Of a DNA stretch of 64,000 nt, positions 9,955 through 25,869 are shown piece after piece (position 1 is the stretch's first letter; each line of letters starts with the position of its first letter). Where the stretch lies: positions 2,144,001 to 2,208,000 of the forward strand of contig CATQHZ020000001.1 in NCBI GenBank assembly GCA_958296135.2. Direction: 5' to 3'. The stretch is from an uncultured Poribacteria bacterium. Lineage in GTDB: Bacteria > Poribacteria > WGA-4E > WGA-3G. Below the pieces are notes generated by a model. The model had not been told where the DNA came from, searched no databases, and saw only the letters and a program-made list of their open reading frames with translations. Both the position numbers and the translations under genes were made by a program.

Positions 9955-10773
9955 TTAGGTTCCGCTCTGCCGAAACCCCACCTCCGTCCGATGCCAATTG
10001 TGCCCCCGGTCTGCATCTCGGAACGGGATACTTCTCCCCAACAACTGCTTGAGGATATCGCTTTCACCCGCTAACGCTGCATCGGTTAACTGCCGAGGCA
10101 TGTCCTCCTGCGGATAGATAACCGAGCGGTTATACATGCCGAGCAACCCGACGCGCGGCGCGTCTGTCACGTTTGGCAGACACTGGTGCCAGATGGCACC
10201 GTTCGTAAACAAAATTGAACCTTTCGGCGCGACAGCGATGCTCTTCTCCAATCCCTCTGCTTCGCCTAACTCTGGGCGGCGCAGCGTTTTGTGCGAGCCA
10301 GCAATACACGCTGTCGCGCCGTTATCCGCTGTGAATGCATCCAGCATCCACACCGTCTGTCCCGTCAATGAACCCGAAGGAAACGGCGGCTGCATCGCCC
10401 AGTAGGGATAGTCAATGTGCCATCCGCCAGCGGGCGCGCCCGCACCAACGATGTTCGCCGTGAACGTTGAGGCGATGACATCCTCGCCGAGCATCCGTTT
10501 CCATACCGCAATAACTGTGGGATGTTGGACAAGCCGCCGAAAAATAGGCGATTTGCCAACGATGCCCCACACGCGCCGGATCTTACTATCGCCGTAAGTG
10601 TGGTCCCGGCCGTTTGCGATATCCTCCTCAACGAGGGCCCATATCGCCTTGCGCGCTTCGTCTGCCTCTTCGGGCGTGATGACGTTCTTGATAATGTGGA
10701 ACCCCACCTCGCCCAGGTCGCGTTCCACGCGGTCAAGTCTCTCTGAATCTAATGCCGATTTGATTTTTAGCAC
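9955..10773 (-). CDS. Phytanoyl-CoA dioxygenase (PhyH) family 2OG-Fe(II) enzyme
   Basis: WHID, LDAFTADNGAT..IAGSH, WH..N...R motifs. Confidence 0.9.
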   Translation of the reverse strand: MLKIKSALDSERLDRVERDLGEVGFHIIKNVITPEEADEARKAIWALVEEDIANGRDHTYGDSKIRRVWGIVGKSPIFRRLVQHPTVIAVWKRMLGEDVIASTFTANIVGAGAPAGGWHIDYPYWAMQPPFPSGSLTGQTVWMLDAFTADNGATACIAGSHKTLRRPELGEAEGLEKSIAVAPKGSILFTNGAIWHQCLPNVTDAPRVGLLGMYNRSVIYPQEDMPRQLTDAALAGESDILKQLLGRSIPFRDADRGHNWHRTEVGFRQSGT

Positions 10774-10790
10774 GGTTACACCTCAAAAAT

Positions 10791-11130
10791 CGCACGATAC
10801 CGTAGGGTGGGGGCCTGTCCCCCGCCATGCATGCAAAAGCCCTTTCTTTATCGCTCACCAAACGCACGCCAAAAAAAACGCACGATACCGTAGGGCGGGG
10901 GACAGGCCCCCGCTATGCATGCTAGAGCCCTTTTTTATCGCTCACCAAACGCACGCCAAAAAAAACGCACGATACCGTAGGGTGGGGGCCTGTCCCCCGC
11001 CATGCCTGTTAGCCCTTTTTCAACGCTCACCAAACGCACGACAAAAAAATCGCACGATACCGTAGGGTGGGGGCCTGTCCCCCGCCATGCCTGTTAGCCC
11101 TTTTTTTTAACGCTCACCAAACGCACGCCA
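10791..11130. repeat. Four ~86-bp tandem units, each containing a GTAG REP-like hairpin
   Basis: cgcacgataccgtaggg(t/c)gggg...ccccgc...cgctcaccaaacgcacg units start near 10791, 10879, 10966, 11051. Confidence 0.85.
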
Positions 11131-12126
11131 CAAATTTGTGGCAAGGGGAAGACTCTGAATACTTTCAATAATCCGATCCTCTCCATCATCTTCATCGCTA
11201 TTCGGCACGCGGTTGTGCTTGTCCATCCACGCGATGTTCTCTGCAACGCTTTCTGTCACAGGCGTTTGCGGGTCGAACTCAGGCAGAACCGCCGCCAACT
11301 TTGCGCCGCTGTAAATCTGCGTATGCCCGAAGTTGTCAAGCAGATGGATATACCGCTGCGTATCGATGCCGATGAGCGTATCTTGCGCTACATGCACGAA
11401 CTCTGCCGAAACACCGAGGACCGCCGCGGCCACTTCCTGCCACTCATCCCACGTGCGCGGCTGCGGGTGAACGAGGTTGTATATCTCGCCGAAGCACTCG
11501 GATTTGCCGAGCACCGCTGCAAACGCAACCCCCGCATCCCGCGATGCCAAAAATTGGAAATAGTTCGTCCCATCGCCCACAGAGATAATCGGTTTCGCTT
11601 TGCGGAGCCGGTCAATCCAGACCCCGCCGCATCCGAGCTGCCGATGTAGGGGTATCCCTGGCCCGTGCGTGTAGGACGGCTTGAAAATCGTCACGGGAAA
11701 CCCATCGCGTGCATGCGCTTCCAACAGCAGATTATCCGCCGCAATCTTGCCCAGTGCGTAATCCGAGGTGCCGTTCAACGGTGCTGTTTCCGGCAAATTT
11801 ATCCCATCAAAAGGCGGCCCGTATGTCATCACTGTTGAGCAGTGGACGAAGTGCCCGACGCGTCCCTGAAATGCCCGTATTGCGGAGGCAGTATCCTCAG
11901 CGTTGAAACTAATCATGTCGATGACAGCATCCCACTCTTCCGCGCCGACTTTGGCTTCAAAATGGACGCGCTGTCTCCTGTCTCCATAAATCACGCGCAT
12001 GTCTTCTGGCGGCACATCTACGTGCTGCCCGCGGTTAAACAGCACGACTTCATGGTTGCGCGCTTGCAACGCGGCGACAATACCGCGGCTAATGTTGCCG
12101 GTGCCGCCGATGACTAAGACTTTCAT
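11107..12126 (-). CDS. NAD-dependent epimerase/dehydratase family protein
   Basis: MKVLVIGGTGNIS, YxxxK (YALGK). Confidence 0.9.
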   Translation of the reverse strand: MKVLVIGGTGNISRGIVAALQARNHEVVLFNRGQHVDVPPEDMRVIYGDRRQRVHFEAKVGAEEWDAVIDMISFNAEDTASAIRAFQGRVGHFVHCSTVMTYGPPFDGINLPETAPLNGTSDYALGKIAADNLLLEAHARDGFPVTIFKPSYTHGPGIPLHRQLGCGGVWIDRLRKAKPIISVGDGTNYFQFLASRDAGVAFAAVLGKSECFGEIYNLVHPQPRTWDEWQEVAAAVLGVSAEFVHVAQDTLIGIDTQRYIHLLDNFGHTQIYSGAKLAAVLPEFDPQTPVTESVAENIAWMDKHNRVPNSDEDDGEDRIIESIQSLPLATNLWRAFGER

Positions 12127-13481
12127 TCGTTGTCTACCTCCTCGATTAACTTCACTTCGGAGTCCGTTAACCCATACAACGCGTAAACCAACGCGTCAAT
12201 CTTTTCCTCAAGGGCCGGGACTTCGCTGCTGTTCGGCTCGTCAAGGATTAACTGAACGTACTCCGCGAGGGCCGATTTCTGCTCCTCTGTCCGCTCCGCT
12301 ACCGGAAAACTCGGCAGTCGATATTCGTATCCCGGCTCGTAGAAATCGATCCAGTTCTTCGCACTCAGTGGTTTCTCATACGAGGATTGATATTGGGTTT
12401 GCGCATAGAAATGGAAAAGTTTGCCGTTCAAAATCGCCAGCAGCGAGAGGTCATCAGTCGGTATGTAACGACGACTCTTATTTAAGAGAAACGCCCCAGA
12501 TGCGTCATAGTAGGCCTGCATAGCAATCCCACCTCGATAGACAATTTTGGGATGCCGAAACTCAGGATACTCTGCACGCGCAGCAAGTTCCCAATAGAAT
12601 TCGCCTTGACGACTACGTGTTTTTAACTTATCACTATAGCCGTTGAGATGCTCGTGGATTGCCGGATATTCGTCCGCAAAAATATGCTCTGCTCCCGACT
12701 CGTTTCTGCCGGACCAGGGCCACTGTCTGAATTTGCCGCTTGGGATAAATATCAGATACTTCGGGGTCAGTTGCCACCTCTTTATCTGCGGCTTCCCAAT
12801 GGCACGTTTTATGAGCTCATCGCTTTTCGCATCCTCACCGATTAACTGCTCGCGTTTGGATTCGTCTATGACGAATGCCAAGTTGCATCCAGTTTCAATG
12901 TAATCACGGTTGAGCTCCAAAAGGTCTCCCAGTCGCGTTCCGGTATTATCAATCTTCGTCAACAACGCTTCAGACGGAACTTCCGCAATCGCTGGCGCGT
13001 TTCGTTTTGCAGGGAAGAAATCAGCCGGGATTTCATGGGCGGAGTCAATGTGGATGCGCGCCTGCTGCTCTCCCCACGAACGGATAGTCAACGCCGCACC
13101 TTCAAAGAAAGCAAACGCAAACGGACGAAAATGCTCATCAACACAGAGAAAACCGAAATCCACCGCGGTATAGCCTTGCCGCTGCAATCCTTCACTGACG
13201 TGAAACAGGAGCTTGGGATACCCTGCCTTCTCACGAAAGCGGATGAGGAACGGCAACCGAGTCCCGGAAGCGTCCCCAGCGCGAACGCGGAGCTCTTGGC
13301 ACTCAATGACCTGGGCGGCGACACCCCCTTCAAGCCGAAGATACGGTAACGGAAAGGGCCGTGCAATTTGCTCCAGCGTGGCACCTTCCGGAATAGGCAA
13401 CCCCAGTTTTTCGTCTAAAAACTGCATCAACGATGCCGCATCGCCGATGCCCTGAATATCGTCACGCGTAACGATACGCAT
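12123..13481 (-). CDS. Specificity cassette C4: conserved N-domain + TaqI_C-like TRD, no methyltransferase motifs
   Basis: MRIVTRDDIQGIGDAASLMQFLDEKLGLPIP start; FYWEL...PKIVY...DLSLLAILN...IDALVYALYGLT as in the TRD of the 1681-aa MTase. Confidence 0.85.
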   Translation of the reverse strand: MRIVTRDDIQGIGDAASLMQFLDEKLGLPIPEGATLEQIARPFPLPYLRLEGGVAAQVIECQELRVRAGDASGTRLPFLIRFREKAGYPKLLFHVSEGLQRQGYTAVDFGFLCVDEHFRPFAFAFFEGAALTIRSWGEQQARIHIDSAHEIPADFFPAKRNAPAIAEVPSEALLTKIDNTGTRLGDLLELNRDYIETGCNLAFVIDESKREQLIGEDAKSDELIKRAIGKPQIKRWQLTPKYLIFIPSGKFRQWPWSGRNESGAEHIFADEYPAIHEHLNGYSDKLKTRSRQGEFYWELAARAEYPEFRHPKIVYRGGIAMQAYYDASGAFLLNKSRRYIPTDDLSLLAILNGKLFHFYAQTQYQSSYEKPLSAKNWIDFYEPGYEYRLPSFPVAERTEEQKSALAEYVQLILDEPNSSEVPALEEKIDALVYALYGLTDSEVKLIEEVDNE

Positions 13482-13684
13482 TTAGCAATGTCCTCCTATC
13501 GTTTTCGGGATTCGGTGCAGCATGGGAACGCACGCTCTTTTCTTTGAAGAATAGACGCATTCGTTGAAGCCGAGGGACCGCGAGGGACAGGCCCTCGCGC
13601 TACGAGCCAAAGTACACGCTGCCCCTCTCCGAAGGGCGAGGGCCCGGCGATCGCGAATCGCCGAGGGTTCCCCTCGCCATGCTG
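13482..13684. repeat. Inter-cassette spacer repeat (near-identical to 18606-18810) with RBS and REP hairpins
   Basis: ttagcaatgtcctcctatcgttttcgggattcggtgcagcatggga...gcgagggacaggccctcgcgctac...cccctcgccatgctg. Confidence 0.9.
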
Positions 13685-15043
13685 CTACCGATGTTCTTCA
13701 ATTAATGCGCGTTCCGCCGCCGTTAGCCGATACAGCGCGTAAACCAACGCGTCGATCTCTTCCTCAAGGGCCGGGACTTCGCGACTGTCGGGTTCGTCAA
13801 GGATCGACTGAACGTACTCCGCGAGGGCCGATTTCTGCGCCTCTGTCCGCTCTGCTACCGGGAAGACTTCCATGATGCTTTTCTTGAAATCCAATCGACT
13901 CCCACTTGATGAGAGACACTCAGATCTCGCCCACCAACTAAACAGTTTGCTGTTCAAAACGGCGAGCAGCGAAAGGTCTGTTGTAGGGATGAAAAATGCC
14001 GGCGTTAAGACAAGCGCGTCCGACTCTTCATAACACGCCCGCATCGAATTGCCCCGGCTATACGGATAGATAATTTTGGGGTACTCTAGCAAAGCATAAC
14101 GCCTGCTTGAAGGGAACTCCCAATAGAATTCTCCCTGTTGCGTGCGCTCCTTCAAAGCGTCTCGGTAGCCGTTTAGATAACCACTAACCGCGGGATAAGT
14201 TATAGCAAAGATGCTCTCCGCTTCTACATCGTTAAGCGCATCAGTCCAAGGCCATCGCGTGTTTAGACTGCTTGGGATAAATATCAGATGCTTTGGCTCC
14301 GCTCTCCATTTTTTTCGCGAAGGTATGTCAACCATCGGCTTTATGATGTCCGCGCTGCTAGGATGTTCGTTTAACAACCTCTCATAAGTGGACACGTCCT
14401 CTATAACGAAGGCTTGGCGGTATCCGGTGTGAACACCACTGTAAATGTTCCCATGATGCCTCAAGAGCGTTCCCACCTCCGGCAGTTTGGCTAACAAACT
14501 CTCGCGCGTAGGACTCGGATCCGGTCGTACCGGCGGCTCAAAAACGAACTCAGGAGGAAGTTCATGTTCATAAGAGACGTGGATAGTCGTATTCTCCTGA
14601 GGCCATGAAAAAATAGTCAGCTCCGCGTTCTGCCAGTCATCCTCCGCCGAATCGTTGAAGTAGGCAAACGCGAACGGTTGGAGATGCTCATCTGTACAGA
14701 TAAACCGGAAAGGGGCAGAGCCTCCGGCATTCCGCTCAAGGGCCGGACAGATGGCGCGAAGTGCAGATTCGTAGCCCTGATTGGTGTTAAATCGCACCAA
14801 GAAGAGGATCCACGGTTCAGGATTTTCCGAAGTATCTCCAGGGAAAATCTGGAGTTTCTGGCAATCCAAAAAATGATCTGCGACAGGTCCTCTCAGCCCA
14901 AGGTCCCTTGGTCTAAACCGTGGACCTGTATCTTCAAGGGTTTCACCTTCCGGGATAGGCAACCCCAGTTTTTCACGCAAAAACTGCATCAACGATGCCG
15001 CATCGCTGATACCCTGAATATCATCACGCGTAACGATACGCAT
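13685..15043 (-). CDS. Specificity cassette C3 (N-domain + TaqI_C-like TRD)
   Basis: Same conserved termini as the other cassettes; unique TRD loops (IYSGVHTG, YWEFPSSRRY). Confidence 0.85.
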   Translation of the reverse strand: MRIVTRDDIQGISDAASLMQFLREKLGLPIPEGETLEDTGPRFRPRDLGLRGPVADHFLDCQKLQIFPGDTSENPEPWILFLVRFNTNQGYESALRAICPALERNAGGSAPFRFICTDEHLQPFAFAYFNDSAEDDWQNAELTIFSWPQENTTIHVSYEHELPPEFVFEPPVRPDPSPTRESLLAKLPEVGTLLRHHGNIYSGVHTGYRQAFVIEDVSTYERLLNEHPSSADIIKPMVDIPSRKKWRAEPKHLIFIPSSLNTRWPWTDALNDVEAESIFAITYPAVSGYLNGYRDALKERTQQGEFYWEFPSSRRYALLEYPKIIYPYSRGNSMRACYEESDALVLTPAFFIPTTDLSLLAVLNSKLFSWWARSECLSSSGSRLDFKKSIMEVFPVAERTEAQKSALAEYVQSILDEPDSREVPALEEEIDALVYALYRLTAAERALIEEHR

Positions 15044-15318: not shown

Positions 15319-16824
15319 CTACCGATGTTCTTCAATTAACGCGCGTTCAGCCTCCGTTAGCCGATACAGCGCGTAAACCAACGCGTCAATCTCTTCCTCA
15401 AGGGCCGGGACTTCGCGACTGTCGGGTTCGTCAAGGATTAACTGAACGTACGCCGCAAGGGCCGCTTTCTGCGCCTCTGTCCGCTCCGCTACCGGAAAAC
15501 TCAACAGTTGAGATTTTTGTCCCGGCAGGTAGAAACTGATCCAACTCTTCGCACTCAGTGGTTTCCTAAACGAGGATTGATATCGGGCTTGCGCATAGAA
15601 ATGGAAAAGTTTGCCGTTCAAAATCGCCAGCAGCGAGAGGTCGTCAGTCGGTATGAAATAACAACTATTCTGTAAGATAAACGCCCCAGATGTGTCATAG
15701 TAGGCCTGAATAGCAATCCCACCTCGATAGACAATTTTGGGATGCCGAAACTCAGGATACTCTGCACGCGCAGCAAGTTCCCAATAGAATTCGCCTTGAC
15801 GACTACGTGTCTTTAACTTATCACTATAGCCGTTGAGATGCTCGTGGATTGCCGGATATTCGTCCGCAAAAATCTGCTCTGCTTCCGACTCGTTTCTGCC
15901 GGACCAGGGCCACTGTCTGAATTTGCCGCTTGGGATAAATATCAGATACTTCGGGGTCAGTTGCCACCTCTTTATCTGCGGCCTCCCAATGGCACGTTTT
16001 ATGAGCTCATCGCTTTTCGCATCTTCACCGATTAACTGCTCGCGTTTGGATTCGTCTATGACGAATGCCAAGTTGCATCCAGTTTCAACGTAACCACGGT
16101 TGAGCTCCCAACGGTCTCCCAGTGGCGGTCCGGTATTATCAATCTTCGCCAACAATGCATCAGACGAAGGTGAAACGACTCTCGCCAGCCCTGTCTCCTC
16201 CTGCACGGGAAGTTCCGGCACATTCAACGGAACTTCCGCATAGGAAACGACAGCGCGATCTTCAGGATCCGGCAGGTCATCCGGTCGCTCGTTGACCCCA
16301 GGCGTTACAGGTGGATCATCCGGTCCCGGAGACGGAGCGGGGAAGAAGACATCCGGTAATACATGCTCCGCACCAGTGTGAACGACCGTCTTCGCCTCTG
16401 TCCACGAAAAGACGGTTAATTCCGCGTTCTGCCAGTCACCTCCCGCCGAATCACTGAAATAGGCGAACGCGAACGGTTGATAATTCTCTCCCATACAGAT
16501 AAAACCGAAATCTGCAAGATTGCGGCCGCGCAACCTTGGTGCACCGCTCACAAGACGCAAGACTTCCGAACAGTCCTCTTCACTGCGAAATCGGATGAGG
16601 AAGATGCCGGAAGGTTCACCGGAAGCACCGCTGATTTCCTGGCAACTCAGAATCTCGCGAGCGATGTCTCCGCTGAGTCCCAGCGAATAGGGTGAAAAAT
16701 CTGCGACAATCTCTCCAAGGCCTAAACCTTCCGGAATAGGCAACCCCAGTTTTTCGTCTAAAAACTGCATCAACGATGCCGCATCGCCGATGCTTTGAAT
16801 ATCATCACGCGTAACGATACGCAT
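15319..16824 (-). CDS. Specificity cassette C2 (C1-type N-domain + C4-type TRD)
   Basis: N-half nearly identical to 17157-18605, C-half nearly identical to 12123-13481. Confidence 0.87.
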   Translation of the reverse strand: MRIVTRDDIQSIGDAASLMQFLDEKLGLPIPEGLGLGEIVADFSPYSLGLSGDIAREILSCQEISGASGEPSGIFLIRFRSEEDCSEVLRLVSGAPRLRGRNLADFGFICMGENYQPFAFAYFSDSAGGDWQNAELTVFSWTEAKTVVHTGAEHVLPDVFFPAPSPGPDDPPVTPGVNERPDDLPDPEDRAVVSYAEVPLNVPELPVQEETGLARVVSPSSDALLAKIDNTGPPLGDRWELNRGYVETGCNLAFVIDESKREQLIGEDAKSDELIKRAIGRPQIKRWQLTPKYLIFIPSGKFRQWPWSGRNESEAEQIFADEYPAIHEHLNGYSDKLKTRSRQGEFYWELAARAEYPEFRHPKIVYRGGIAIQAYYDTSGAFILQNSCYFIPTDDLSLLAILNGKLFHFYAQARYQSSFRKPLSAKSWISFYLPGQKSQLLSFPVAERTEAQKAALAAYVQLILDEPDSREVPALEEEIDALVYALYRLTEAERALIEEHR

Positions 16825-17156
16825 TTAGCAATGTTCTCCTATCGTTTTCGGGATTCGGTGCAGCATGGGAACGCACGCGCTTCTCTTTGAAGAATAGACG
16901 CATTCGTTGAAGCCGAGGGACCGCGAGGGACAAGCCCTCGCGCTACGGCCCAAAGCACACGCCGCCCCTCTCCGTAGGGCGAGGGCCGTCACGGTCACGC
17001 CTACAGCAAACGTGCGTGTGTCGCCTCGCGAAAGCACGGTCACGTCTACAGAAAATGTGCGTGTGTCGCCCCGCGTAAACACGCTACCTTACTTACTTTA
17101 ACGTTGTCCTCTCTGCCGCCTCGCTGCAGAGATGTCCACTGCCCCTCGCCATGCTG
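16825..17156. repeat. Inter-cassette spacer repeat with an extra insert containing a 45-bp imperfect direct repeat
   Basis: First ~160 bp match the other spacers; cacggtcacg(c/t)ctacag...gtgcgtgtgtcgcc at 16990 and 17035. Confidence 0.8.
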
Positions 17157-18605
17157 CTACCGATGTTCTTCAATTAACGCGCGTTCAGCCTCCGTTAGCC
17201 GATACAGCGCGTAAACCAACGCGTCGATCTCTTCCTCAAGGGCCGGGACTTCGCTGCTGTTCGGCTCGTCAAGGATCAACTGAACGTACCCCGCAAGGGC
17301 CGCTTTCTGCTCCTCTGTCCGCTCCGCTACCGGGAAGACTTCTATGTCGCTTTTCTTGAACTTCAACAGGGTTTCACCGGGGGCACGACACTCGGATTGC
17401 GCCCACCAATGAAAAAGTTTGCTGTTCAAAATCGCGAGCAGAGAGAGATCTGTCGTGGGTATGGAAAATGTGCCGAGGAAGCGAAGCGCATCCCCTTCTA
17501 CATAACACGCCCGCATTGAACTACCATCCGGATAGATAATTCTAGGGCGGTTATCAGGACTCTGGTCATCTACCGAGAGTTCCCAATAGAATTCACCTCG
17601 GTGAAATGCAGAACGGTTTTTTAATTTATCCCTATAACGGTTCAGGTGATTGCTGATTGCGGGATAGGTTTCCGCAAAAATTCGCTCCGCGGCCGCTTCA
17701 TCTGTCGTAACTGACCAGGGCCACTGTTTGTGCCGACCGTTCGGGATCCATATCAGATACGCCCGCTGCGGCCCCCATTTTTTCTTTTTGGGAACGCGAA
17801 CCAACGGCCTCATGAGTTGGGCACTGGCAGGGTCTTCCGCGATTAACTGTTCGCGTTTGAATTCCTCAATAACGAACGCGCGGTTGAGCCTAGTGACAAT
17901 GTTGCCGCTCAAAATGGTCCATTGCTGACCCAACGGTAACCCGCCCTTTTTCAGTTTGGCTAACAAACTCTCGCGAGAATACGAAACGACTTTCAGTTTG
18001 GCTAACAAACTCTCGCGAGAATACGAAACGACAGCGAGATCTTCAGGATCCGGCGGGTCATCCGGTCGCTCGTTGACCCCAGGCGTTACAGGTGGATCAT
18101 CCGGTCCCGGAGACGGAGCGGGGAAGAAGACATCCGGTAATACATGCTCCGCACTAGTGTGAACGACCGTCTTCGCCTCTGTCCACGAAAAGACGGTTAA
18201 TTCCGCGTTCTGCCAGTCACCTCCCACCGAATCACTGAAATAGGCGAACGCGAACGGTTGATAATTCTCTCCCATACAGATAAAACCGAAATCTGCAAGA
18301 TTGCGGCCGCGCAACCTTGGTGCACCGCTCACAAGACGCAAGACTTCCGAACAGTCCTCTTTACTGCGAAATCGGATGAGGAAGATGCTGGAAGGTTCAC
18401 CAGAAGCACCGCTGATTTCCTGGCAACTCATAATCTTGCGGGCGATGTCTCCGCTGAGTCCCAGCGAATAGGGTGAAAAATCTGCGACAATCTCTCCAAG
18501 GCCTAAACCTTCCGGAATAGGCAACCCCAGTTTTTCGTCTAAAAACTGCATCAACGATGCCGCATCGCCGATGCCCTGAATATCGTCACGCGTAACGATA
18601 CGCAT
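17157..18605 (-). CDS. Specificity cassette C1 (N-domain + TaqI_C-like TRD)
   Basis: Conserved termini; unique TRD; 14-aa tandem duplication VVSYSRESLLAKLK at the hinge. Confidence 0.85.
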   Translation of the reverse strand: MRIVTRDDIQGIGDAASLMQFLDEKLGLPIPEGLGLGEIVADFSPYSLGLSGDIARKIMSCQEISGASGEPSSIFLIRFRSKEDCSEVLRLVSGAPRLRGRNLADFGFICMGENYQPFAFAYFSDSVGGDWQNAELTVFSWTEAKTVVHTSAEHVLPDVFFPAPSPGPDDPPVTPGVNERPDDPPDPEDLAVVSYSRESLLAKLKVVSYSRESLLAKLKKGGLPLGQQWTILSGNIVTRLNRAFVIEEFKREQLIAEDPASAQLMRPLVRVPKKKKWGPQRAYLIWIPNGRHKQWPWSVTTDEAAAERIFAETYPAISNHLNRYRDKLKNRSAFHRGEFYWELSVDDQSPDNRPRIIYPDGSSMRACYVEGDALRFLGTFSIPTTDLSLLAILNSKLFHWWAQSECRAPGETLLKFKKSDIEVFPVAERTEEQKAALAGYVQLILDEPNSSEVPALEEEIDALVYALYRLTEAERALIEEHR

Positions 18606-18810
18606 TTAGCAATGTCCTCCTATCGTTTTCGGGATTCGGTGCAGCATGGGAACGCACGCGCTTTTCTTTGAAGAATAGACGCATTCGTTGAAGCCGAGGG
18701 ACCGCGAGGGACAGGCCCTCGCGCTACGGGCCAAAGCACACGCCGCCCCTCTCCGAAGGGCGAGGGGCCGGCGAGCGCGAATCGCCGAGGGTTCCCCCCT
18801 CGCCATGCTG
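18606..18810. repeat. Inter-cassette spacer repeat
   Basis: Near-identical to 13482-13684. Confidence 0.9.
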
Positions 18811-21800
18811 CTACCGATTTTCTTCGATTAACTCGCGCTCAGCCTCCGTTAACCCATACAACGCGTAAACCAACGCGTCGATCTCCTCCTCAAGGGCCGG
18901 GACTTCGTGGCTGTCGGGTTCGTCAAGGATTAACTGAACGTACTCTGCAAGGGCCGCTTTCTGCTCCTCTGTCCGCTCCGCTATGCGAACGTTCTGCATG
19001 TTCGCCTTCGTGAAATACAGAATGGATTTCCCGGGTGCCTTGCATTCGGTTCGCGCGTACCAACCGAAAAGTTTGCTGTTTAAAATCGCCAGCAGGGACA
19101 GATCTTCTGTCGGTATGAAGTGGATGGAACCTAAAGCAAATGCCCCTGTGGTGTCATAGCATGCCCGCAGAGAGCCGCCACTAAGCGGGTAGACAATCTT
19201 GGACGGTTGAAACGCCGGAGATTTGTCACGCCCCCCAAATTCCCAAAAGAATTCTCCGTTATGAGCAGCGTCCGGGTCCCTTAAAATGTCCCTATAGTTG
19301 CTGAGGTGTGCATGGATTGCCGGAAAGGTCTTGGCAAAAATCCGCTCTGCCTCGGCTTCATCTCTCGCCTTGGTCCAAAACCACTGTTTGTGCCGGCTGT
19401 TTGGAATGTAGATTAGTGATGCCGCTTCCGCTCTCCATTTGGTTCGACGAGGTATACGAATTAGCGACTTTAGGAGCTGAGCACTTTCAGGATCGGCATC
19501 AATCAACTCCCCACGTTTTGATGCGTCTATAACGTAAGCCCGATCGCATCCGGTTACAACCCCGCCGAAAATGTTACAATGCCGACTCAACGGTGCTCCG
19601 ACATTTTTCAACTTGGCCAACAAGGCCTCACGCGAAGTCGGCTCAACCCGATGAGGTGATGGCGGAACAGGAATAGGCTTCGGTTCCGGACCGTCAGAAC
19701 CTTCCCGAAAAAAGAGACGCGCCAAATCGTGTTCATAGGCTGTGTGGATAGAGGTGTTTTCCTCCGTCCACGAACAGATAGTCAACTCCGCGGACTGCAA
19801 GCCTTCGGATGCCGAATCGCTGAAGTAAGCAATAGCGAACGGTTGGAAATCCTCACCCGCGCAGATAAAGCGGCAATCGGCCAACTCGTAACCCTGCTGT
19901 TGCAGTCCATCACTGACCTGGCGCAGGACTCCCGGATAACCCGCTTTACTATTAAACCGGACGAGGAAAGGTTTTTGGTTTGCTGAGGTACCCCCAGGAC
20001 GAACCCTGATTTCATAGCAATCTTTAACCTGTTCTGCGACAGAATCGCCCAGGCCAAGGAAAACTAAAGGCAATGGAAGTGCAATCCGTTCAAAAACTGC
20101 ATCTTCCCGGATAGGCAACCCCAGTTTTTCGTCTAAAAATTGCATCAACGATGCCGCATCGCCGATGCCCTGAATATCGTCACGGGTAATGATACGCATA
20201 GGCATATCCTCCTTTTCTGGCGGCAATTCGCCGGGTTCGGGTAACGGTATGCCAGCATCGCAATACGTTTTCTTGATTAACGCAATCTCGGTATCCGTTA
20301 ACCCATAGACTTCGTAGACTAACTCATCGATAGCATGCTCAAGTGCAGGCACCGCATCTCCTGCAGGATCGGCGAGGATCCGCGCAACCCAGCGCGTGAG
20401 TTGTGCCCGCTGCTCCGAGGTCATCTCCGCGATTGGGAAACGTTTCATGTAGAGCGCGATAAAGCGTAAACTGCCACCCGCCCACGCATCGTTGAAGCTC
20501 TGAAACTTGTAGCGAGCATACCAATCAAACAGTGTGCTATTCAAAATCGCAAGCAAGGATAAGTCTGTCGTCGGTATGAAGTAGGCAGTGGCAACACTAA
20601 TCGTTTGCGCCGTGTCATAACTGGCGTATAGAGATTGCGCCGTTTCGGGCCAGACGATTTTCGGCTTTTCAAACTCAGCTCGATAACTGCACGAACGCAA
20701 TTCCCAATAAAATTTACCGCGAGCAGTCCGGCGAATCAGTTCCTCGCGATAGCGTTTCAGATGCTGGTAAACCGCCGGATAGCACTCCGCAAAGATTCGC
20801 TCCGCCTCTGTGTCATTTTCGGCATTCGACCAGGGCCAATCCGCGTTTGTGCTGCTTGCAATCGCTATCAGATACTCGTTTGACTCTTTCGCGTCCCACT
20901 TCCGGGTATAACGTCCCCGCAGCAGTGGCTTTATGAATGCACTGCTCTGGGGGGAATCAGCGATGAGTTGTTTGCGCGTGGAAGAATCTATCACGAACGC
21001 AGGGTCGTATCCGGTGACAAGCCCGCGGTAAATATCGCCGTTGACATACTCTTCCAACAGTGTCCCGGTATCTTGAAGTTTTTCAAGCAGCGCGAATGTC
21101 TCAGGGGCAGCCAAAATCCACGCGTCAGGAGAGAGTTGGGAAATCTGCATCGGGAACACCTGTTCTTGAAACGCCTCCCTGATGTCAAATTTCTTGGCGT
21201 TTTCTCTTAAAGTTGCCGCGGAGAAGAGCTGATCTGGGCTGGGACAACGATTTTCAGCGAGGACGATGCACGTGTCAACTGCCGCCTCAAAAACGGAGAT
21301 GCTCCCAAAATCCAAAAGGTTCTTCAGTGACATTTCTGTGGCAAGAAACTGGCGTAGGTTTTCGCCATAGGCCGCCCGGAAAAACTTATTGGTGCAGATA
21401 TAGGTCAAGATGCCATCGGGCTTCAGTAGCTCGGCTGCGCGTTTGTAGAAATAGACGCTAATATCCGCAGGCCTAAAGAAGAAGTCGCCAAAATAGGATT
21501 GCAATGCCGGTGCGAGATTGACTACCATCTCATGCCGGTAATCAACATACGGCGGATTGCCGATGACGATGTCAAACCCATCCTTCACACCGAACATCTC
21601 CTCCGCATCGAAGAAATCCGCGCTGGCGTTCCTGTCGTAGGGATTCCACTGCGCGATTTTCGTTGCTTCGTCAACGACACCGGTTCGCGCCTCCAGAGCC
21701 CATTCCGTAGACAATTCGGTCAGCGCGTTGACTAATTCGCCCCGGCATGCCTCTTCTTCGTTCATCAGCGAGAGTTTCATCTGCCGGGTGTTCGCGCTGA

Positions 21801-23856
21801 AGTAGTTCTCGCGAATCTTTGAAATTTGCTGGCGTTTCTGCTCAATCACGTCTGTCTCAAGGAGCATTTGGAAATCGGGTTTCTTGAGCCCGATGAGCGT
21901 ATCGGCGGCGACGAATCGGATCTCCAAGTTCGGCAGCGGTTGGATACCGTAGTTGTCGTCAGCGTTATCGTTCGGCACCTGCTCAATGATAAGCGAGATG
22001 AAAAAGCGCAGTTTAGCAATCGTCACGGCGATGGGTTGGATGTCTACCCCGTAGATGCTCTTTTGAATGAGGTAGAGTTTCCGTCCGTAGTTGTTATGCC
22101 GATTTTCTTCGGCGAAAGCCTTCTCAATCGCCGCAATCGCCAAGTTCCGGACGATAGCATCCGGAATCAGATATGCCTGCTGAATTTGGTACTGTTTCCA
22201 CCGTTTGTTCCGCCGGTCAAGTTTTTTGAGGATAAGCACCAATTTGTTCAGAATGCCCATCGGGAAGGCACCTGAGCCGACGGCCGGGTCGAGCAGCTTG
22301 AGCTCGTCTATCGCTTGGATGAGTTGCGTTACCTCACTTTCGCGGATGAGGTGTTCGGTCTGCGAATCCGCTTCCCCCTCTGCTTCATAAGCGAGCAAAT
22401 CGTCGCGGAGGCGTTCTTCCAGAAAGTCCCTATTTCCATCAAACGGTTCGACCTTCTGCAGGAAATAGGCGATGAGTGCCTCGTCTACCATGTAGTCAAC
22501 AATCTGGCGCGGTGTGTAGTAAGAGCCGGTGGATTTCCGCGCGCTGGATTGCGTTTCAGGGTTGTAGTCGCCGAGCAGGTTCTCAAACACGCGCCCGAGG
22601 AGTTCGGGTTCAAGCGCGACTTCCTGTTCAATCGGCGTGTTTTCCTCCACGGTAAACTTATAGCGCGAAAAGAGCGGGAAGATACCTTTTCCATCCTGAA
22701 AAAAGAGTTTGTCCGGCACGTGCAGTTTCTGCCGCTCGTTTTCGTTATCGGTGAAGCAATCGATGCGTCCGCCGCCGTCGCGCGTCGCCTCAAACGTATC
22801 AAGGCAGTCAAACAGCCCGCCGTTGACAAATGGCACCTGCTTGAGTTTTTCGAGAAATGCATCGGGTTCGTGCAACAGATCGGCGTAGCGATATTTGCTT
22901 GCGTCTCGATGGTTTCGGTTATCCGCAGTGCTGAAGGCGCGTTCGGTTATCGGCGTATTCAGCGTCGCGAAGAAAAGGTTTTGCAGGATGGCCTTGTAGT
23001 ATGTGTCATCAGGGGACGCTTCAACAAAGAGCTCGACAGGGATCAGGCCTTTCTCCTTCAGAAACCAGATGAAGAGCAGTCGGGTAATCAAGCGGATGAC
23101 CTGGGGTTCAGTCTCGCCATCTGGGAAACGGCATTCCGATTTTGCCCACTCATACCACTCAAACAGTTCTCGATAAAACTTGCGGTTGAGGGTTTCGGTG
23201 TTGAGCACACCTTCCCACGCGTTGTGTAGCGTATCAAAATTGCGAACGTCCTCGGTCTCAATGAGAGCCTCCAGATGCAATTCGGCAAGAATATCCAGAT
23301 GCGCGCGGTGCGGGTTGCGCAACTTGATGTCCTTGATGAGCGTCACTTTTTCCAGCACCTGTTTCGTCGCGTCGCGTTTGTGCCATCGGCGGTTGATAAT
23401 CGCCAGCGTCAGGACATCGCCGTATCGGAACATCACCAGAATCGGCACTACGAAGCGGCCGTTGACAAAGCGGGTGATATTGGCAAGCTGTGTGCGCGTA
23501 TAGTTCTCCCCACTGAGTTGCATAGCGACGAAGATATAGGAGAGCCTCAGATTTTCGTCAAACTTCGCGGTTTCAAACAGCATTTCCTGCTGATTGATCT
23601 CGCTGTCGGTAATCTGGAAGATGAGGTGGAATTTCTCCCAATCGTCAACACAGAGTTTATCGGCGGCATCGGCAGGTGCTTGCGTGCGGCGCGCCGCCGC
23701 GGCCTCCCGGAGGGTGCCGAACAGCTGCTCATCTAAACCCTTGTTCCCGGTTCTATCGCTGTGGTAACCGAGGGCGTTGAGGAAGCGCGTGGCAGCCTCG
23801 CGCAGCGGCGTTTCCGCGAAGGAGCTTATACAGTTTTGGATATCGGTTCTGTTCAT
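18811..23856 (-). CDS. Eco57I/TaqI-like (Type IIG-style, gamma-class) N6-adenine DNA methyltransferase with TRD1 plus a fused C-terminal cassette module (TRD2)
   Basis: PELLGRVFENLL, TGSYYTPR, motif I LLDPAVGSGAF, IYGVDI, motif IV GFDIVIGNPPYV, TaqI_C-like FYWELRSCSY..FEKPKIVW; a second module starts at Met1220 (MRIITRDDIQGIGDAASLMQF). Confidence 0.92.
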   Translation of the reverse strand: MNRTDIQNCISSFAETPLREAATRFLNALGYHSDRTGNKGLDEQLFGTLREAAAARRTQAPADAADKLCVDDWEKFHLIFQITDSEINQQEMLFETAKFDENLRLSYIFVAMQLSGENYTRTQLANITRFVNGRFVVPILVMFRYGDVLTLAIINRRWHKRDATKQVLEKVTLIKDIKLRNPHRAHLDILAELHLEALIETEDVRNFDTLHNAWEGVLNTETLNRKFYRELFEWYEWAKSECRFPDGETEPQVIRLITRLLFIWFLKEKGLIPVELFVEASPDDTYYKAILQNLFFATLNTPITERAFSTADNRNHRDASKYRYADLLHEPDAFLEKLKQVPFVNGGLFDCLDTFEATRDGGGRIDCFTDNENERQKLHVPDKLFFQDGKGIFPLFSRYKFTVEENTPIEQEVALEPELLGRVFENLLGDYNPETQSSARKSTGSYYTPRQIVDYMVDEALIAYFLQKVEPFDGNRDFLEERLRDDLLAYEAEGEADSQTEHLIRESEVTQLIQAIDELKLLDPAVGSGAFPMGILNKLVLILKKLDRRNKRWKQYQIQQAYLIPDAIVRNLAIAAIEKAFAEENRHNNYGRKLYLIQKSIYGVDIQPIAVTIAKLRFFISLIIEQVPNDNADDNYGIQPLPNLEIRFVAADTLIGLKKPDFQMLLETDVIEQKRQQISKIRENYFSANTRQMKLSLMNEEEACRGELVNALTELSTEWALEARTGVVDEATKIAQWNPYDRNASADFFDAEEMFGVKDGFDIVIGNPPYVDYRHEMVVNLAPALQSYFGDFFFRPADISVYFYKRAAELLKPDGILTYICTNKFFRAAYGENLRQFLATEMSLKNLLDFGSISVFEAAVDTCIVLAENRCPSPDQLFSAATLRENAKKFDIREAFQEQVFPMQISQLSPDAWILAAPETFALLEKLQDTGTLLEEYVNGDIYRGLVTGYDPAFVIDSSTRKQLIADSPQSSAFIKPLLRGRYTRKWDAKESNEYLIAIASSTNADWPWSNAENDTEAERIFAECYPAVYQHLKRYREELIRRTARGKFYWELRSCSYRAEFEKPKIVWPETAQSLYASYDTAQTISVATAYFIPTTDLSLLAILNSTLFDWYARYKFQSFNDAWAGGSLRFIALYMKRFPIAEMTSEQRAQLTRWVARILADPAGDAVPALEHAIDELVYEVYGLTDTEIALIKKTYCDAGIPLPEPGELPPEKEDMPMRIITRDDIQGIGDAASLMQFLDEKLGLPIREDAVFERIALPLPLVFLGLGDSVAEQVKDCYEIRVRPGGTSANQKPFLVRFNSKAGYPGVLRQVSDGLQQQGYELADCRFICAGEDFQPFAIAYFSDSASEGLQSAELTICSWTEENTSIHTAYEHDLARLFFREGSDGPEPKPIPVPPSPHRVEPTSREALLAKLKNVGAPLSRHCNIFGGVVTGCDRAYVIDASKRGELIDADPESAQLLKSLIRIPRRTKWRAEAASLIYIPNSRHKQWFWTKARDEAEAERIFAKTFPAIHAHLSNYRDILRDPDAAHNGEFFWEFGGRDKSPAFQPSKIVYPLSGGSLRACYDTTGAFALGSIHFIPTEDLSLLAILNSKLFGWYARTECKAPGKSILYFTKANMQNVRIAERTEEQKAALAEYVQLILDEPDSHEVPALEEEIDALVYALYGLTEAERELIEENR

Positions 23857-24152
23857 AAATCGTCAGAGCTCTCTTTGCGTTTGCGCCGCGAGAGGGACAG
23901 CCCTCCGAAGCCGCTAACTACGGCCATATAAAACCCGACGTCATACCACCAGCCTGTATTAAGCGGTTCATAGACGCGGATATCCGAGTTGAAGATGCCC
24001 CAAATCAGCGATACCGGGGCGAGCCAGCCGTGCCAGATGCCCCAGAAAAAGCCGGCAGGCTTTTCTACGGTGTGCTTCCCATCGCCGGGGAGGCACCCGC
24101 TCTGCAGCATCAGTACCGTTAACAGCAGGATACAAAGCAACCGTCTTGCCAT
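23853..24152 (-). CDS. Small conserved membrane (lipo)protein
   Basis: Lipobox-like QSGC, PAGFFWGIWHGW...NTGWWYDVGF; stop overlaps the MTase ATG (ATGA). Confidence 0.75.
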   Translation of the reverse strand: MARRLLCILLLTVLMLQSGCLPGDGKHTVEKPAGFFWGIWHGWLAPVSLIWGIFNSDIRVYEPLNTGWWYDVGFYMAVVSGFGGLSLSRRKRKESSDDL

Positions 24153-24155
24153 GAC

Positions 24156-24545
24156 TTATGCCTCTTGCGATTCTTCCTGTTCAAGCCGCTTGAACCATGA
24201 GCTGATCTGGCGAGGCGTCGCATTGGGGACCGCCGCTTGCATCTTTTTGAGAATCTCCCGCTTGGACATCCCCGGTGTCTTCGCTAGGAAGACGGTTCGA
24301 GCTTTCGCATACAAGACCGGATCGACTTTTCTGCGGCCGACACGGGTGCGGAAGTTCCGCGGTCCTTCGTAGTTCAGCGCGTCAAGGGCAGCGTTCCACT
24401 CGTCGGTTTTGATCCAACGGTATAAGGTGCGTGAGGAAACGCCGATGGCGAGGGCGATCGCATCGGCGTTCCTATTACCGCCAGCGAAGATGTCCACCGC
24501 GGTCTTCATTTTTTTCTTTCTTACATCGCTTGGTAGTGCAGGCAT
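24156..24545 (-). CDS. Helix-turn-helix DNA-binding protein
   Basis: ADAIALAIGVSSRTLYRW HTH, possible second HTH near ATPRQISSWF. Confidence 0.7.
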   Translation of the reverse strand: MPALPSDVRKKKMKTAVDIFAGGNRNADAIALAIGVSSRTLYRWIKTDEWNAALDALNYEGPRNFRTRVGRRKVDPVLYAKARTVFLAKTPGMSKREILKKMQAAVPNATPRQISSWFKRLEQEESQEA

Positions 24546-24555
24546 TTCTCTCTTT

Positions 24556-24635
24556 CCTATCTTTTTTGAAATAGGCCTATCTTTTTTGAAATAGGCCTAT
24601 CTTTTTTGAAATAGGCCTATCTTTTTTGAAATAGG
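24556..24635. repeat. Four perfect tandem 20-bp quasi-palindromes (possible operator array or VNTR)
   Basis: cctatcttttttgaaatagg x4, ending 10 bp upstream of the HTH start codon. Confidence 0.9.
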
Positions 24636-24774
24636 CCTGACGCAACTCCGACACCGTAGGTGCGGTTTGCAACCGCGCCTACCGGTGGAGAATGACGGTA
24701 TTTGCGTCATACCAAATTAGGCTGCTTCGCAGGAACCCGAACGACTCAGGTTAATTGGATCTAAGTCCTATTTT

Positions 24775-25869
24775 TTAGTCTATTATCGTCACAACACGTT
24801 TATTTGTCAAGAAAAAATCGGTTTGCGGATGCTCAGCATCAACAATGGCGCGTGCCAATGCCCAATCTAACCGTCGGCGATATTGGCCATCGCGGCGTAA
24901 CCCCTTGAACGCTGTCAGAAAAACGTCGTGCGTTCTCTCGCGGATGGTGGTGAGACGTGCATTGAGATTCTCTACATCTACCTGCCACGGGACGCGGAGT
25001 TTCGTGATGGAACGTCCCTGATAACGGACAGGATACCCCGCTAACTCCGCCGGCGGACAAAAACAGATGGAGGCGCAAACCGTATTGTCTACGGCGACGA
25101 GCCCCACATTTCCCGTCGGTTCATTGAACACAATCTCGCGATTGCGCGAAGGCATCGGCAGGTGCGTGCGGAGCTCCGAGAGGGTTCCGAGGAACTGATT
25201 GTTGCGCCATATTCTCACTGAAGGGACGCGCGTGGAAAGCGTATTTACTGTCGGTGCAGGCCCGAACAGCGCGAGCCCAACTGGATGTTCGGTATCCGCA
25301 AACATAAACGTTTCCGGCGGCCGCGCTTTTTCCACATCCCCCGGGAGGCGCGCTTTGGCAGCGCGCGCCTGTATGTCCACCGGTTGCATTTGTGGAACTA
25401 ATGAGACAAAATCGTGCAACCGGTGCAGGAACAGCCTACTCCGAATGAACGCCTCTGGGATAATCGCCGCTACCCACTTACAATTTGCCAAGCACTTCTC
25501 CAACGCGTATTTGTAAAGATCATCGTGTTGGATATCGCGTGGAAACGGCAGTCCCCGGCGCGTCGCGGAGTTGCGCGCCAGCCACGGCGGGTTTGTAATG
25601 CACACCTCAAACCCTCTCGGAAAATCAGCGAGTGTATCGCGTCGCCGGACCTCGGCGGCGGCGGGCTCAATGTCAAAAAGGGCCCACTCTCGGCACTGCA
25701 ACCGCGCTTCACTTAGCAGCCGTGGAATGCTGTTATCACCGGCGAAAGGTTCCAACGCGTGCTGCTGGTTTAAGTTGAGTGCCGCTGCCCACGCGCGGAA
25801 GGGTTTCAACTGAAACGGATTTCCGCGGGTGTAGTAGCGGCCCGTTGCACGTTTTTCCTCTATATGCAT
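24775..25869 (-). CDS. Putative solitary amino-DNA methyltransferase
   Basis: GRYYT, LEPFAGDNS (motif I-like), FDIEP, ITNPPW (motif IV), DDLYKYAL; gamma motif order. Confidence 0.7.
   Translation of the reverse strand: MHIEEKRATGRYYTRGNPFQLKPFRAWAAALNLNQQHALEPFAGDNSIPRLLSEARLQCREWALFDIEPAAAEVRRRDTLADFPRGFEVCITNPPWLARNSATRRGLPFPRDIQHDDLYKYALEKCLANCKWVAAIIPEAFIRSRLFLHRLHDFVSLVPQMQPVDIQARAAKARLPGDVEKARPPETFMFADTEHPVGLALFGPAPTVNTLSTRVPSVRIWRNNQFLGTLSELRTHLPMPSRNREIVFNEPTGNVGLVAVDNTVCASICFCPPAELAGYPVRYQGRSITKLRVPWQVDVENLNARLTTIRERTHDVFLTAFKGLRRDGQYRRRLDWALARAIVDAEHPQTDFFLTNKRVVTIID

Follow-up and report, generated by a model that had tools for sequence, protein, structure and literature searches.

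In a 64,000-nucleotide (nt) stretch of the genome of a sponge-symbiont bacterium, Candidatus Poribacteria (contig CATQHZ020000001.1, positions 2,144,001 to 2,208,000; referred to here as the window), a gene for a methylase resembling Type IIG restriction-modification enzymes continues in frame into a target-recognition module, and the Shine-Dalgarno (SD) hexamer AGGAGG, followed after 8 nt by an ATG, lies inside this gene exactly where the module begins. We conclude that this AGGAGG-N8-ATG is probably the retained translation-initiation region of a formerly stand-alone module gene and that it is now mostly vestigial. The junction is not an artefact, the fusion recurs among orthologs, unfused relatives of the methylase stop there, and the module occurs elsewhere as a free gene with an SD of its own. 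In what follows, G000 is the genome of the window, G001 and G002 are congeners, X is the methylase-like gene listed in Table 1 or its product, and a module is a unit of about 460 amino acids (aa) that consists of an N-domain and a TaqI-like target-recognition domain (TRD). Full-text literature searches returned no more than broad remarks about restriction-modification in symbionts of sponges and about the mobility of TRDs in other bacteria, and nothing on this Poribacteria locus, which appears to be undescribed.

The internal start signal and the fusion junction

The minus strand at 20217..20191 reads GAAAAGGAGGATATGCCTATGCGTATC, in which AGGAGG (20213..20208) is followed by a spacer of 8 nt (ATATGCCT) and by an ATG (20199..20197) that is codon 1220 of the methylase open reading frame (ORF) and in frame with it, as (23856-20199)/3 = 1219. 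The 3' end of the 16S rRNA is ...GGATCACCTCCTTTCT (also ...CACCTCCTTTCT), and its anti-SD, CCTCCT, is fully complementary to AGGAGG. The ORF therefore contains, in frame, a start codon that is preceded at a suitable distance by a ribosome-binding site. The other nearby in-frame ATG, codon 1218, is badly spaced, being too near AGGAGG to use it. Four free paralogs of the module, 52-56% identical to residues 1218-1681 of the fusion, are also encoded in the window. They begin MRIVTRDD (MRIVTRDDIQ...), their first residue occupies the position of Met1220, and they have a nearly invariant N-terminus and C-terminus in common. Their leaders read AGGAGGACATTGCTAA-ATG, with an AGGAGA variant in the second, and an in-frame TAA stands directly before each ATG. 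Chance does not account for a motif placed at the very residue with which four paralogs begin. The original prediction had placed AGGAGG 8 nt before the Met1220 ATG, at the exact start of the free cassettes, with the frame open through the junction; the minus-strand sequence, the paralog starts and the 1681-aa ORF without a stop bear out both statements.

Relatives of the fused protein were then compared across the junction. A search with aa 1150-1330 returned 34 proteins, 31 of which (1395-1813 aa, including those of G000 and G002) span the junction with 93-100% coverage, and the remaining three (1052-1275 aa) match only the first third of the query. All 31 fused orthologs read ...TY[RCH]DAG[MI]...PE[PKE]ED-x-x-M[RG]; the Met and the Glu-Asp are the same in every one, and 8 different residue pairs stand between them. 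Among 33 clusters of close orthologs, at least 85% identical over aa 300-760, 31 have this fusion, each with a Met where the module starts, and two, P0138 (1289 aa) and P0139 (1274 aa), are unfused and end ...TYRDAGMEV or ...TYRDAGMAV. A 1202-aa paralog elsewhere in G000 ends ...TYRDAGMGV-stop. Since the unfused relatives stop two codons past ...DAGM, the native end of the methylase is the point at which the linker of the fused form starts. Relatives thus exist in which the two parts are separate and the upstream part ends at the junction, as expected of a gene fusion. Homologs do carry a stop before the position of the Met1220 ATG, at ...DAGM-x-V in the paralog and in P0138 and P0139 and as the in-frame TAA in the free modules. 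The suggestion that loss of a stop codon fused a formerly separate gene draws support from these ends at the junction, from the occurrence of the module in other genera as a free gene with its own SD and from the SD-to-ATG alignment described below.

The syntenic gene of G002 encodes a 1684-aa fusion (GAGGAGGATATACCTATG / ...CCCGAAGAGGAGGATATACCTATGCGT...) in which AGGAGG is kept and the linker is 7 aa shorter. In G001, X is followed by a small membrane ORF and the methylase start, and then the contig breaks off. A pattern scan of genome contigs for the fused junction found G002 only, and a pattern scan and a protein-guided scan of metagenome contigs for this junction gave no match. The junction was read as DNA in two genomes (G000 and G002) and as protein only in the 29 other fused and the two unfused orthologs.

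Free modules formed about 100 clusters of 436-500 aa, and the three with a source name were each a hypothetical protein of Candidatus Poribacteria. Most of the free leaders from other genera have a purine-rich GGAG/GAGG 7-10 nt before the ATG. At ten loci of other genera (L032, L034-L042), the module is downstream of an X of 326-385 aa, directly so in all but two, where one ORF stands between them. X was present in 79 of the 81 other genomes sampled from the family. Both X and a free-type module were located in 18 genomes; in 17 of these the two lie on one strand, with the module start 37-1533 nt downstream of X, and in the remaining one they are on different contigs. The distance from X to the module is 4.6 kb in G000 and 4.0 kb in G002, and the Type IIG-like gene fills the gap.

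The fusion probably arose as follows. In the ancestral state, the module would have lain directly downstream of the small methylase-like X and would have had its own GGAG-type ribosome-binding site. In the ancestor of the genus, a Type IIG-like methylase gene would have come into the spacer between X and the module. Loss of the native methylase end (...TY[RC]DAGM-x-V-stop) would then have allowed read-through of the last 27-48 nt of the former leader into the module ATG, giving one 1681-aa protein with two recognition domains. The linker (20200..20247) would be the former non-coding leader, the former SD would now code for Glu-Asp (E-D-x-x-M) in a Pro/Glu-rich linker, and the former start codon would be Met1220. 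From the SD to the ATG, 11 of 14 positions match between the fused and free forms, and a 2-nt gap removes the in-frame TAA; we infer that insertion came first, followed by loss of the stop with a 2-nt deletion.

Several points weigh against this account. The junction DNA comes from only two genomes, with the rest of the orthologs compared at the protein level. Similarity between the linker and the free leaders beyond the SD was not significant, as local alignments with AGGAGG masked scored 6 (G000) and 8 (G002), values reached by 73% and 18%, respectively, of 4,000 background contexts; the read-through of a leader is consequently suggested by the SD, its offset and the ATG and by nothing upstream of them. 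The direction of events was assigned by parsimony over genera, without a rooted tree. Finally, an invariant Met and Glu-Asp with variable residues between them would also fit a selected SD-spacer-ATG, and because such selection would give the same residue pattern, a purely vestigial status is not established.

Possible present use of Met1220 as a start codon

An alternative to a vestigial signal is a functional nested gene, in which selection would keep the SD and ATG so that the same mRNA yields the 1681-aa fusion and, in addition, a separate module of about 52 kDa. Acting in trans, this free module might, for instance, serve X as a recognition subunit or compete with the fused form. The nested-gene alternative is compatible with origin by fusion and differs only in claiming a present function; we regard it as possible but doubtful. 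Consistent with it are the full complementarity of AGGAGG to the anti-SD at a spacing of 8 nt, the retention of the SD in G002 despite a 7-aa indel just upstream in the linker, and the invariant Met and Glu-Asp of the 31 fused orthologs, between which the spacer residues vary. X is also intact and conserved in the genus (80% identity between G000 and G002), which presumably leaves a need for a free recognition partner. A precedent exists among restriction systems: in E. coli McrBC (PMC12707154), a short form, McrB-S, is made by initiation at an in-frame internal start and modulates assembly. As with McrB-L and McrB-S, an in-frame internal start in a restriction-related gene could here give a C-terminal product beside the full-length protein; unlike the McrB case, in which the short product has been demonstrated, the present one is known from sequence alone, is a fusion remnant and has free paralogs beside it. 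Alternative in-frame initiation sites have been mapped in E. coli by retapamulin ribosome profiling (10.1101/520783). An internal SD and ATG leading to N-terminally truncated proteoforms is the common element, and the difference lies in the organism, which here belongs to an uncultured lineage.

Other observations argue against a nested gene. Free modules that carry an SD of their own are present in both genomes (four in G000 and one in G002), which means that X does not need the nested product, and other linker residues (DAG, PE, LPP) are equally invariant. When G000 and G002 were compared, 4 of 37 identical-residue codons differed within codons 1179-1240 (1/18 + 3/19), versus 370 of 1107 (33%) overall. 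This block, low in synonymous differences, could equally well be a recombination anchor or a start site; in the C-terminal block, 3 of 20 identical-residue codons differed, and in the variable domains, 50-85% did. The pattern fits recombination anchors flanking old alleles, and synonymous-site conservation in this pair does not single out the start site; conservation at the third codon positions of GAG-GAT is readable in the two genomes only. The mRNA structure at the internal start was average for the methylase gene, falling in the 51st-63rd percentile of the 50-nt windows of the gene, compared to the 99th for the main start, and the starts of the free modules were equally average. Among the sequencing runs listed as containing this sequence, none is recorded as RNA. 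Taken together, the synonymous-site, residue and mRNA-structure comparisons gave no sign of selection for the internal start, and conservation of the Met and the SD is also expected because of recent common descent and the nucleotide-level conservation of the whole junction block. Since the SD is intact and matches the anti-SD, some internal initiation at Met1220 is nevertheless likely on physical grounds. A stronger proposal, that one cassette programmes two methylases, in cis as the C-terminal part of the Type IIG-like enzyme and in trans as a 52-kDa recognition subunit of X, is in our judgment unlikely; if it were true, a cassette swap in the fused slot would change the specificity of both enzymes in one step.

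The hexamer might instead be kept as a translational pause at the domain boundary, which would allow the methylase and its first recognition domain (TRD1) to fold ahead of the module. Ribosomes can be slowed by SD-like motifs within genes, although this pausing effect is disputed. The position of AGGAGG, at the very boundary of two folded units and in a linker that is disordered and rich in Pro and Glu, would suit such a role, but descent from a free leader accounts for the motif without any added function, and we consider a selected pause very improbable.

The background frequency of the motif and the accuracy of the assembly were also assessed. With ORFs of at least 300 codons used as gene proxies, 28 of the 18,462 in-frame ATGs inside ORFs genome-wide (0.15%) were preceded by AGGAGG at a distance of 4-10 nt, as were 98 of the 2,151 first ATGs of long ORFs (4.6%); for any 4-mer SD core, the values were 5% of internal ATGs versus 41% of first ATGs. 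Positions 20155..24585 are covered with 0 differences by a 4431-nt Logan contig in sequencing runs X1 and X2. In runs X3 and X4, a 4432-nt contig has one T inserted after 22608, 2.4 kb from the junction, which is itself unchanged. The four runs come from one sample, probably the source of the assembly, and they confirm the read-out rather than provide independent evidence. The extra T (GGGTT to GGGTTT, in X3 and X4 only) would shift the methylase frame near codon 416 and is either an error or a subpopulation. It is scarcely credible that the motif is a chance hexamer before an ordinary internal Met, as occurs 28 times in the genome, given a rate of 0.15% per internal ATG and a site that is the exact start residue of four paralogs, or that an assembly or sequencing error removed a stop, an explanation raised by the original prediction and refuted by the identical junction in the contigs of all four runs and by the open frame in G002 and 29 further database proteins.

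The fused protein, its modules and the neighbouring genes

Residues 1-1203 form an Eco57I-type N6-adenine methylase (Pfam Eco57I, 1.3e-33 at aa 600-856). Its translation contains DPAVGSGAF and GNPPYV, the motif I and NPPY sequences of gamma-class N6-adenine methylases. Pfam TaqI_C matched in two stretches (3.3e-18), and TRD1 lies at about aa 1000-1203, so that a C-terminal TaqI-like TRD is in the same chain, as in Type IIG enzymes. The best PADLOC model was REase_MTase_IIG (6.7e-112), with a match that ends at aa 1196. No nuclease family was recognised in aa 1-420; the methylase N-terminus gave only sub-threshold matches to DUF4391 (E 0.0027) and MmeI_hel (E 0.23). Residues 1220-1681 are an extra module behind this Type IIG-like enzyme.

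The AlphaFold model of free module 3, built from an 81-row alignment with a mean predicted local distance difference test (pLDDT) value of 87, has an alpha/beta N-domain (residues 1-150), a disordered Pro-rich stretch and a recognition domain. The module TRD matched those of M.BseCI, CamA, MmeI, BpuSI and PglX (Foldseek E 4e-12 to 1e-3). The N-domain modelled alone (pLDDT 81) had no clear solved relative in Foldseek (best E 0.05) or in VIA-align wide (best Z 5.7, root-mean-square deviation 3.8 over 104 residues), and hhalign found no match between the methylase N-terminus and the module. An atlas search with the N-domain gave weak leads only, to N-terminal pieces of PglX/MmeI-type proteins (score 0.80).

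Module-like parts were also seen in other arrangements. Methylases of a second class, about 1050 aa long, have a module-like N-domain at the N-terminus (35-37% identity); the one of G010 (L044 2674..5829) follows a helicase gene and a 247-aa ORF with an N-domain-like stretch; G113 has eight ORFs of 295-297 aa with a module-like N-domain. Some free modules are 758-826 aa long (L032 4276..6756 of G006; P0042, P0043; G072), and the 826-aa one of G006 has two recognition domains behind one N-domain, another kind of fusion in the same family. Methylase orthologs P0004-P0024 carry in-frame low-complexity inserts of variable length (VARLQSAPTGGGAEA / VGAVSNRAP / KARLPG repeats) at about aa 285-400, and the same kind of insert is present in the X of G001 (L048 1117..2679). 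These look like a repeated DNA element that is tolerated inside coding regions.

X is 66-78% identical across genera and 80% identical between G000 and G002, and LEPFAG and CITNPPW are unchanged in all 11 X sequences compared. Pfam Eco57I matched X in 11 of 11 (best E 2.6e-6), the match of the window's own X being below the cut-off, and X aligned to motifs IV-VIII of a full-length methylase (hhalign E 4.7e-4). X has the catalytic motifs and no TRD and has kept its adjacency to a TRD-bearing gene, as expected of a split methylase. On this basis, we infer that X and the module may together form a split methylase in which X is catalytic and the module is the recognition subunit. A complex prediction for X with free module 3, made without controls, gave no verdict for or against this pairing (score 0.00 in two runs). 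The gene order X, module, NAD-dependent epimerase (330 aa), PhyH-type dioxygenase (270 aa) is found across genera and in the window (9955..13481, 24775..25869). The epimerase start overlaps the module stop by 4 nt, and the Epimerase family was confirmed in 7 of 7 loci scanned; the same holds in the window. This is odd company for a DNA-recognition protein and may reflect operon hitch-hiking or a functional link.

The 51 modules of the genus-level group were sorted into 9 types by N-domain and 15 by TRD, of which 26 pairings occur; types are common to the fused and free slots, and TRD1 of the methylase also occurs in several forms among orthologs. Within the window, an N-domain segment is 98% identical between modules 1 and 2, and segments of the recognition domain are 86-100% identical between modules 2 and 4. 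The mosaic of types in fused and free slots indicates that parts have been exchanged among slots over evolutionary time. A division of fused (MRII...) and free (MRIV...) forms into separate 5' lineages was rejected, as the free hits P0036-P0126 start with MRII five times and with MRIV eight times. All five modules of the window are direct repeats on the same strand, and a Pfam scan of 13 neighbouring ORFs found no recombinase family among them; the inverted repeats and adjacent site-specific recombinase of an inverting hsdS-type shufflon were thus not found. Given direct repeats and no recombinase among these ORFs, exchange presumably proceeds by general homologous recombination. The Logan contigs gave no evidence of switching within the sample: the joints fall in a spacer repeat, and the base differences are at positions where cassettes 2 and 4 differ. 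This repeat is a GC-rich palindromic element (AGGGACCGCGAGGGACAGGCCCTCGCGCTACGG) in the spacers 13482..13684, 16825..17156 and 18606..18810, with 237 copies in the genome at up to 4 mismatches and a contig depth in the thousands. It is a genome-wide repeat resembling repetitive extragenic palindromes and accounts for the many joints in the read layout.

Two further repeats lie within the modules. A terminator-like 12-bp hairpin (GCATCGGCGATG-CGG-CATCGTTGATGC) with a T-run is located in the conserved 5' block, 31-57 nt after the ATG, of all five (minus strand, 20142..20168, 18548..18574, 16767..16793, 14986..15012 and 13424..13450); the hairpin and T-run had no covariation support outside the genus, and the consensus energy was -2.4 kcal/mol. 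Free module 1 contains an exact 42-nt tandem duplication (17949..18032), which repeats ...SRESLLAKLK... in the linker before the recognition domain. Directly upstream of the HTH_23 gene, at 24556..24655, a 20-nt unit (CCTATCTTTTTTGAAATAGG), itself an inverted repeat, occurs four times in tandem; these repeats are possibly operator sites. The features of the locus are listed in Table 1.

Table 1. Features of the fused methylase gene and its surroundings (positions in the window)
Feature	Coordinates	Strand	Details
Fused methylase ORF	18811..23856	-	1681 aa, without internal stop
Type IIG-like methylase part	20248..23856	-	codons 1-1203; Pfam, PADLOC
Linker PLPEPGELPPEKEDMP	20200..20247	-	codons 1204-1219, between native methylase C-terminus (...TYCDAGI) and module
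AGGAGG, SD-like hexamer	20208..20213	-	inside ORF; overlaps codons K1215-E1216-D1217
Second in-frame ATG, codon 1218	20203..20205	-	2 nt after AGGAGG; ATA (Ile) in G002
ATG codon 1220, Met1220	20197..20199	-	first module residue; 8 nt after AGGAGG
Fused module	18811..20199	-	462 aa from Met1220; N-domain, disordered Pro-rich linker, TaqI-like TRD, conserved C-terminal helices
Free module 1	17157..18605	-	482 aa; leader AGGAGGACATTGCTAA at 18606..18621
Free module 2	15319..16824	-	501 aa; leader AGGAGAACATTGCTAA
Free module 3	13685..15043	-	452 aa; leader AGGAGGACATTGCTAA
Free module 4	12123..13481	-	452 aa; leader AGGAGGACATTGCTAA
Epimerase gene	11107..12126		start shares 4 nt with stop of free module 4
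X, methylase-like protein	24775..25869	-	364 aa; LEPFAG, CITNPPW; without recognition domain
HTH_23 protein gene	24156..24545		129 aa; precedes membrane-like ORF
Membrane-like ORF	23853..24152		99 aa; stop overlaps methylase start

Relation to known systems and significance

The fused enzyme resembles Type IIG and IIL enzymes (MmeI, BpuSI) and PglX of bacteriophage exclusion (BREX) systems in having an Eco57I-type gamma N6-adenine methylase followed by a TaqI-like TRD. It differs from these in that a second unit of N-domain plus TRD is fused behind the complete enzyme. No nuclease domain was recognised in its N-terminus, and no BREX partner families were found by Pfam among the 13 neighbouring ORFs scanned. 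The Type IIB enzymes AloI, CjeI and TstI also combine a methylase and two recognition domains in one polypeptide, in which the pair of TRDs makes up a unit like HsdS that includes long conserved helices. Unlike in those enzymes, the second TRD here has its own N-domain after a flexible linker and is a recent add-on. The exchange of parts recalls the Type I hsdS and Type IIG genes of Helicobacter pylori, for which mobility of recognition domains ("domain movement") is reported (PMC3077401, PMC3575425); in both cases, variable recognition domains lie between conserved blocks and are shuffled among alleles and positions. The present locus departs from hsdS systems in that all of its cassettes are direct, with no recombinase among the ORFs scanned, and in that its module is a single TaqI-like TRD with an N-domain of no recognised fold, compared to the two-TRD HsdS.

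The motif itself is an ordinary footprint of gene fusion, useful as a precise dating and explanation of that event, and the locus around it is of more interest. This locus consists of X, a methylase-like gene that belongs to the single-copy core of one Poribacteria family, and a hypervariable recognition-module gene alongside it, to which one genus has added a Type IIG-like methylase captured in frame and as many as four spare modules. Were the internal start unused, the junction would be a clean example of a 5' leader turned into a protein linker; were it in use, the locus would be a natural example of two enzymes supplied by a single cassette.

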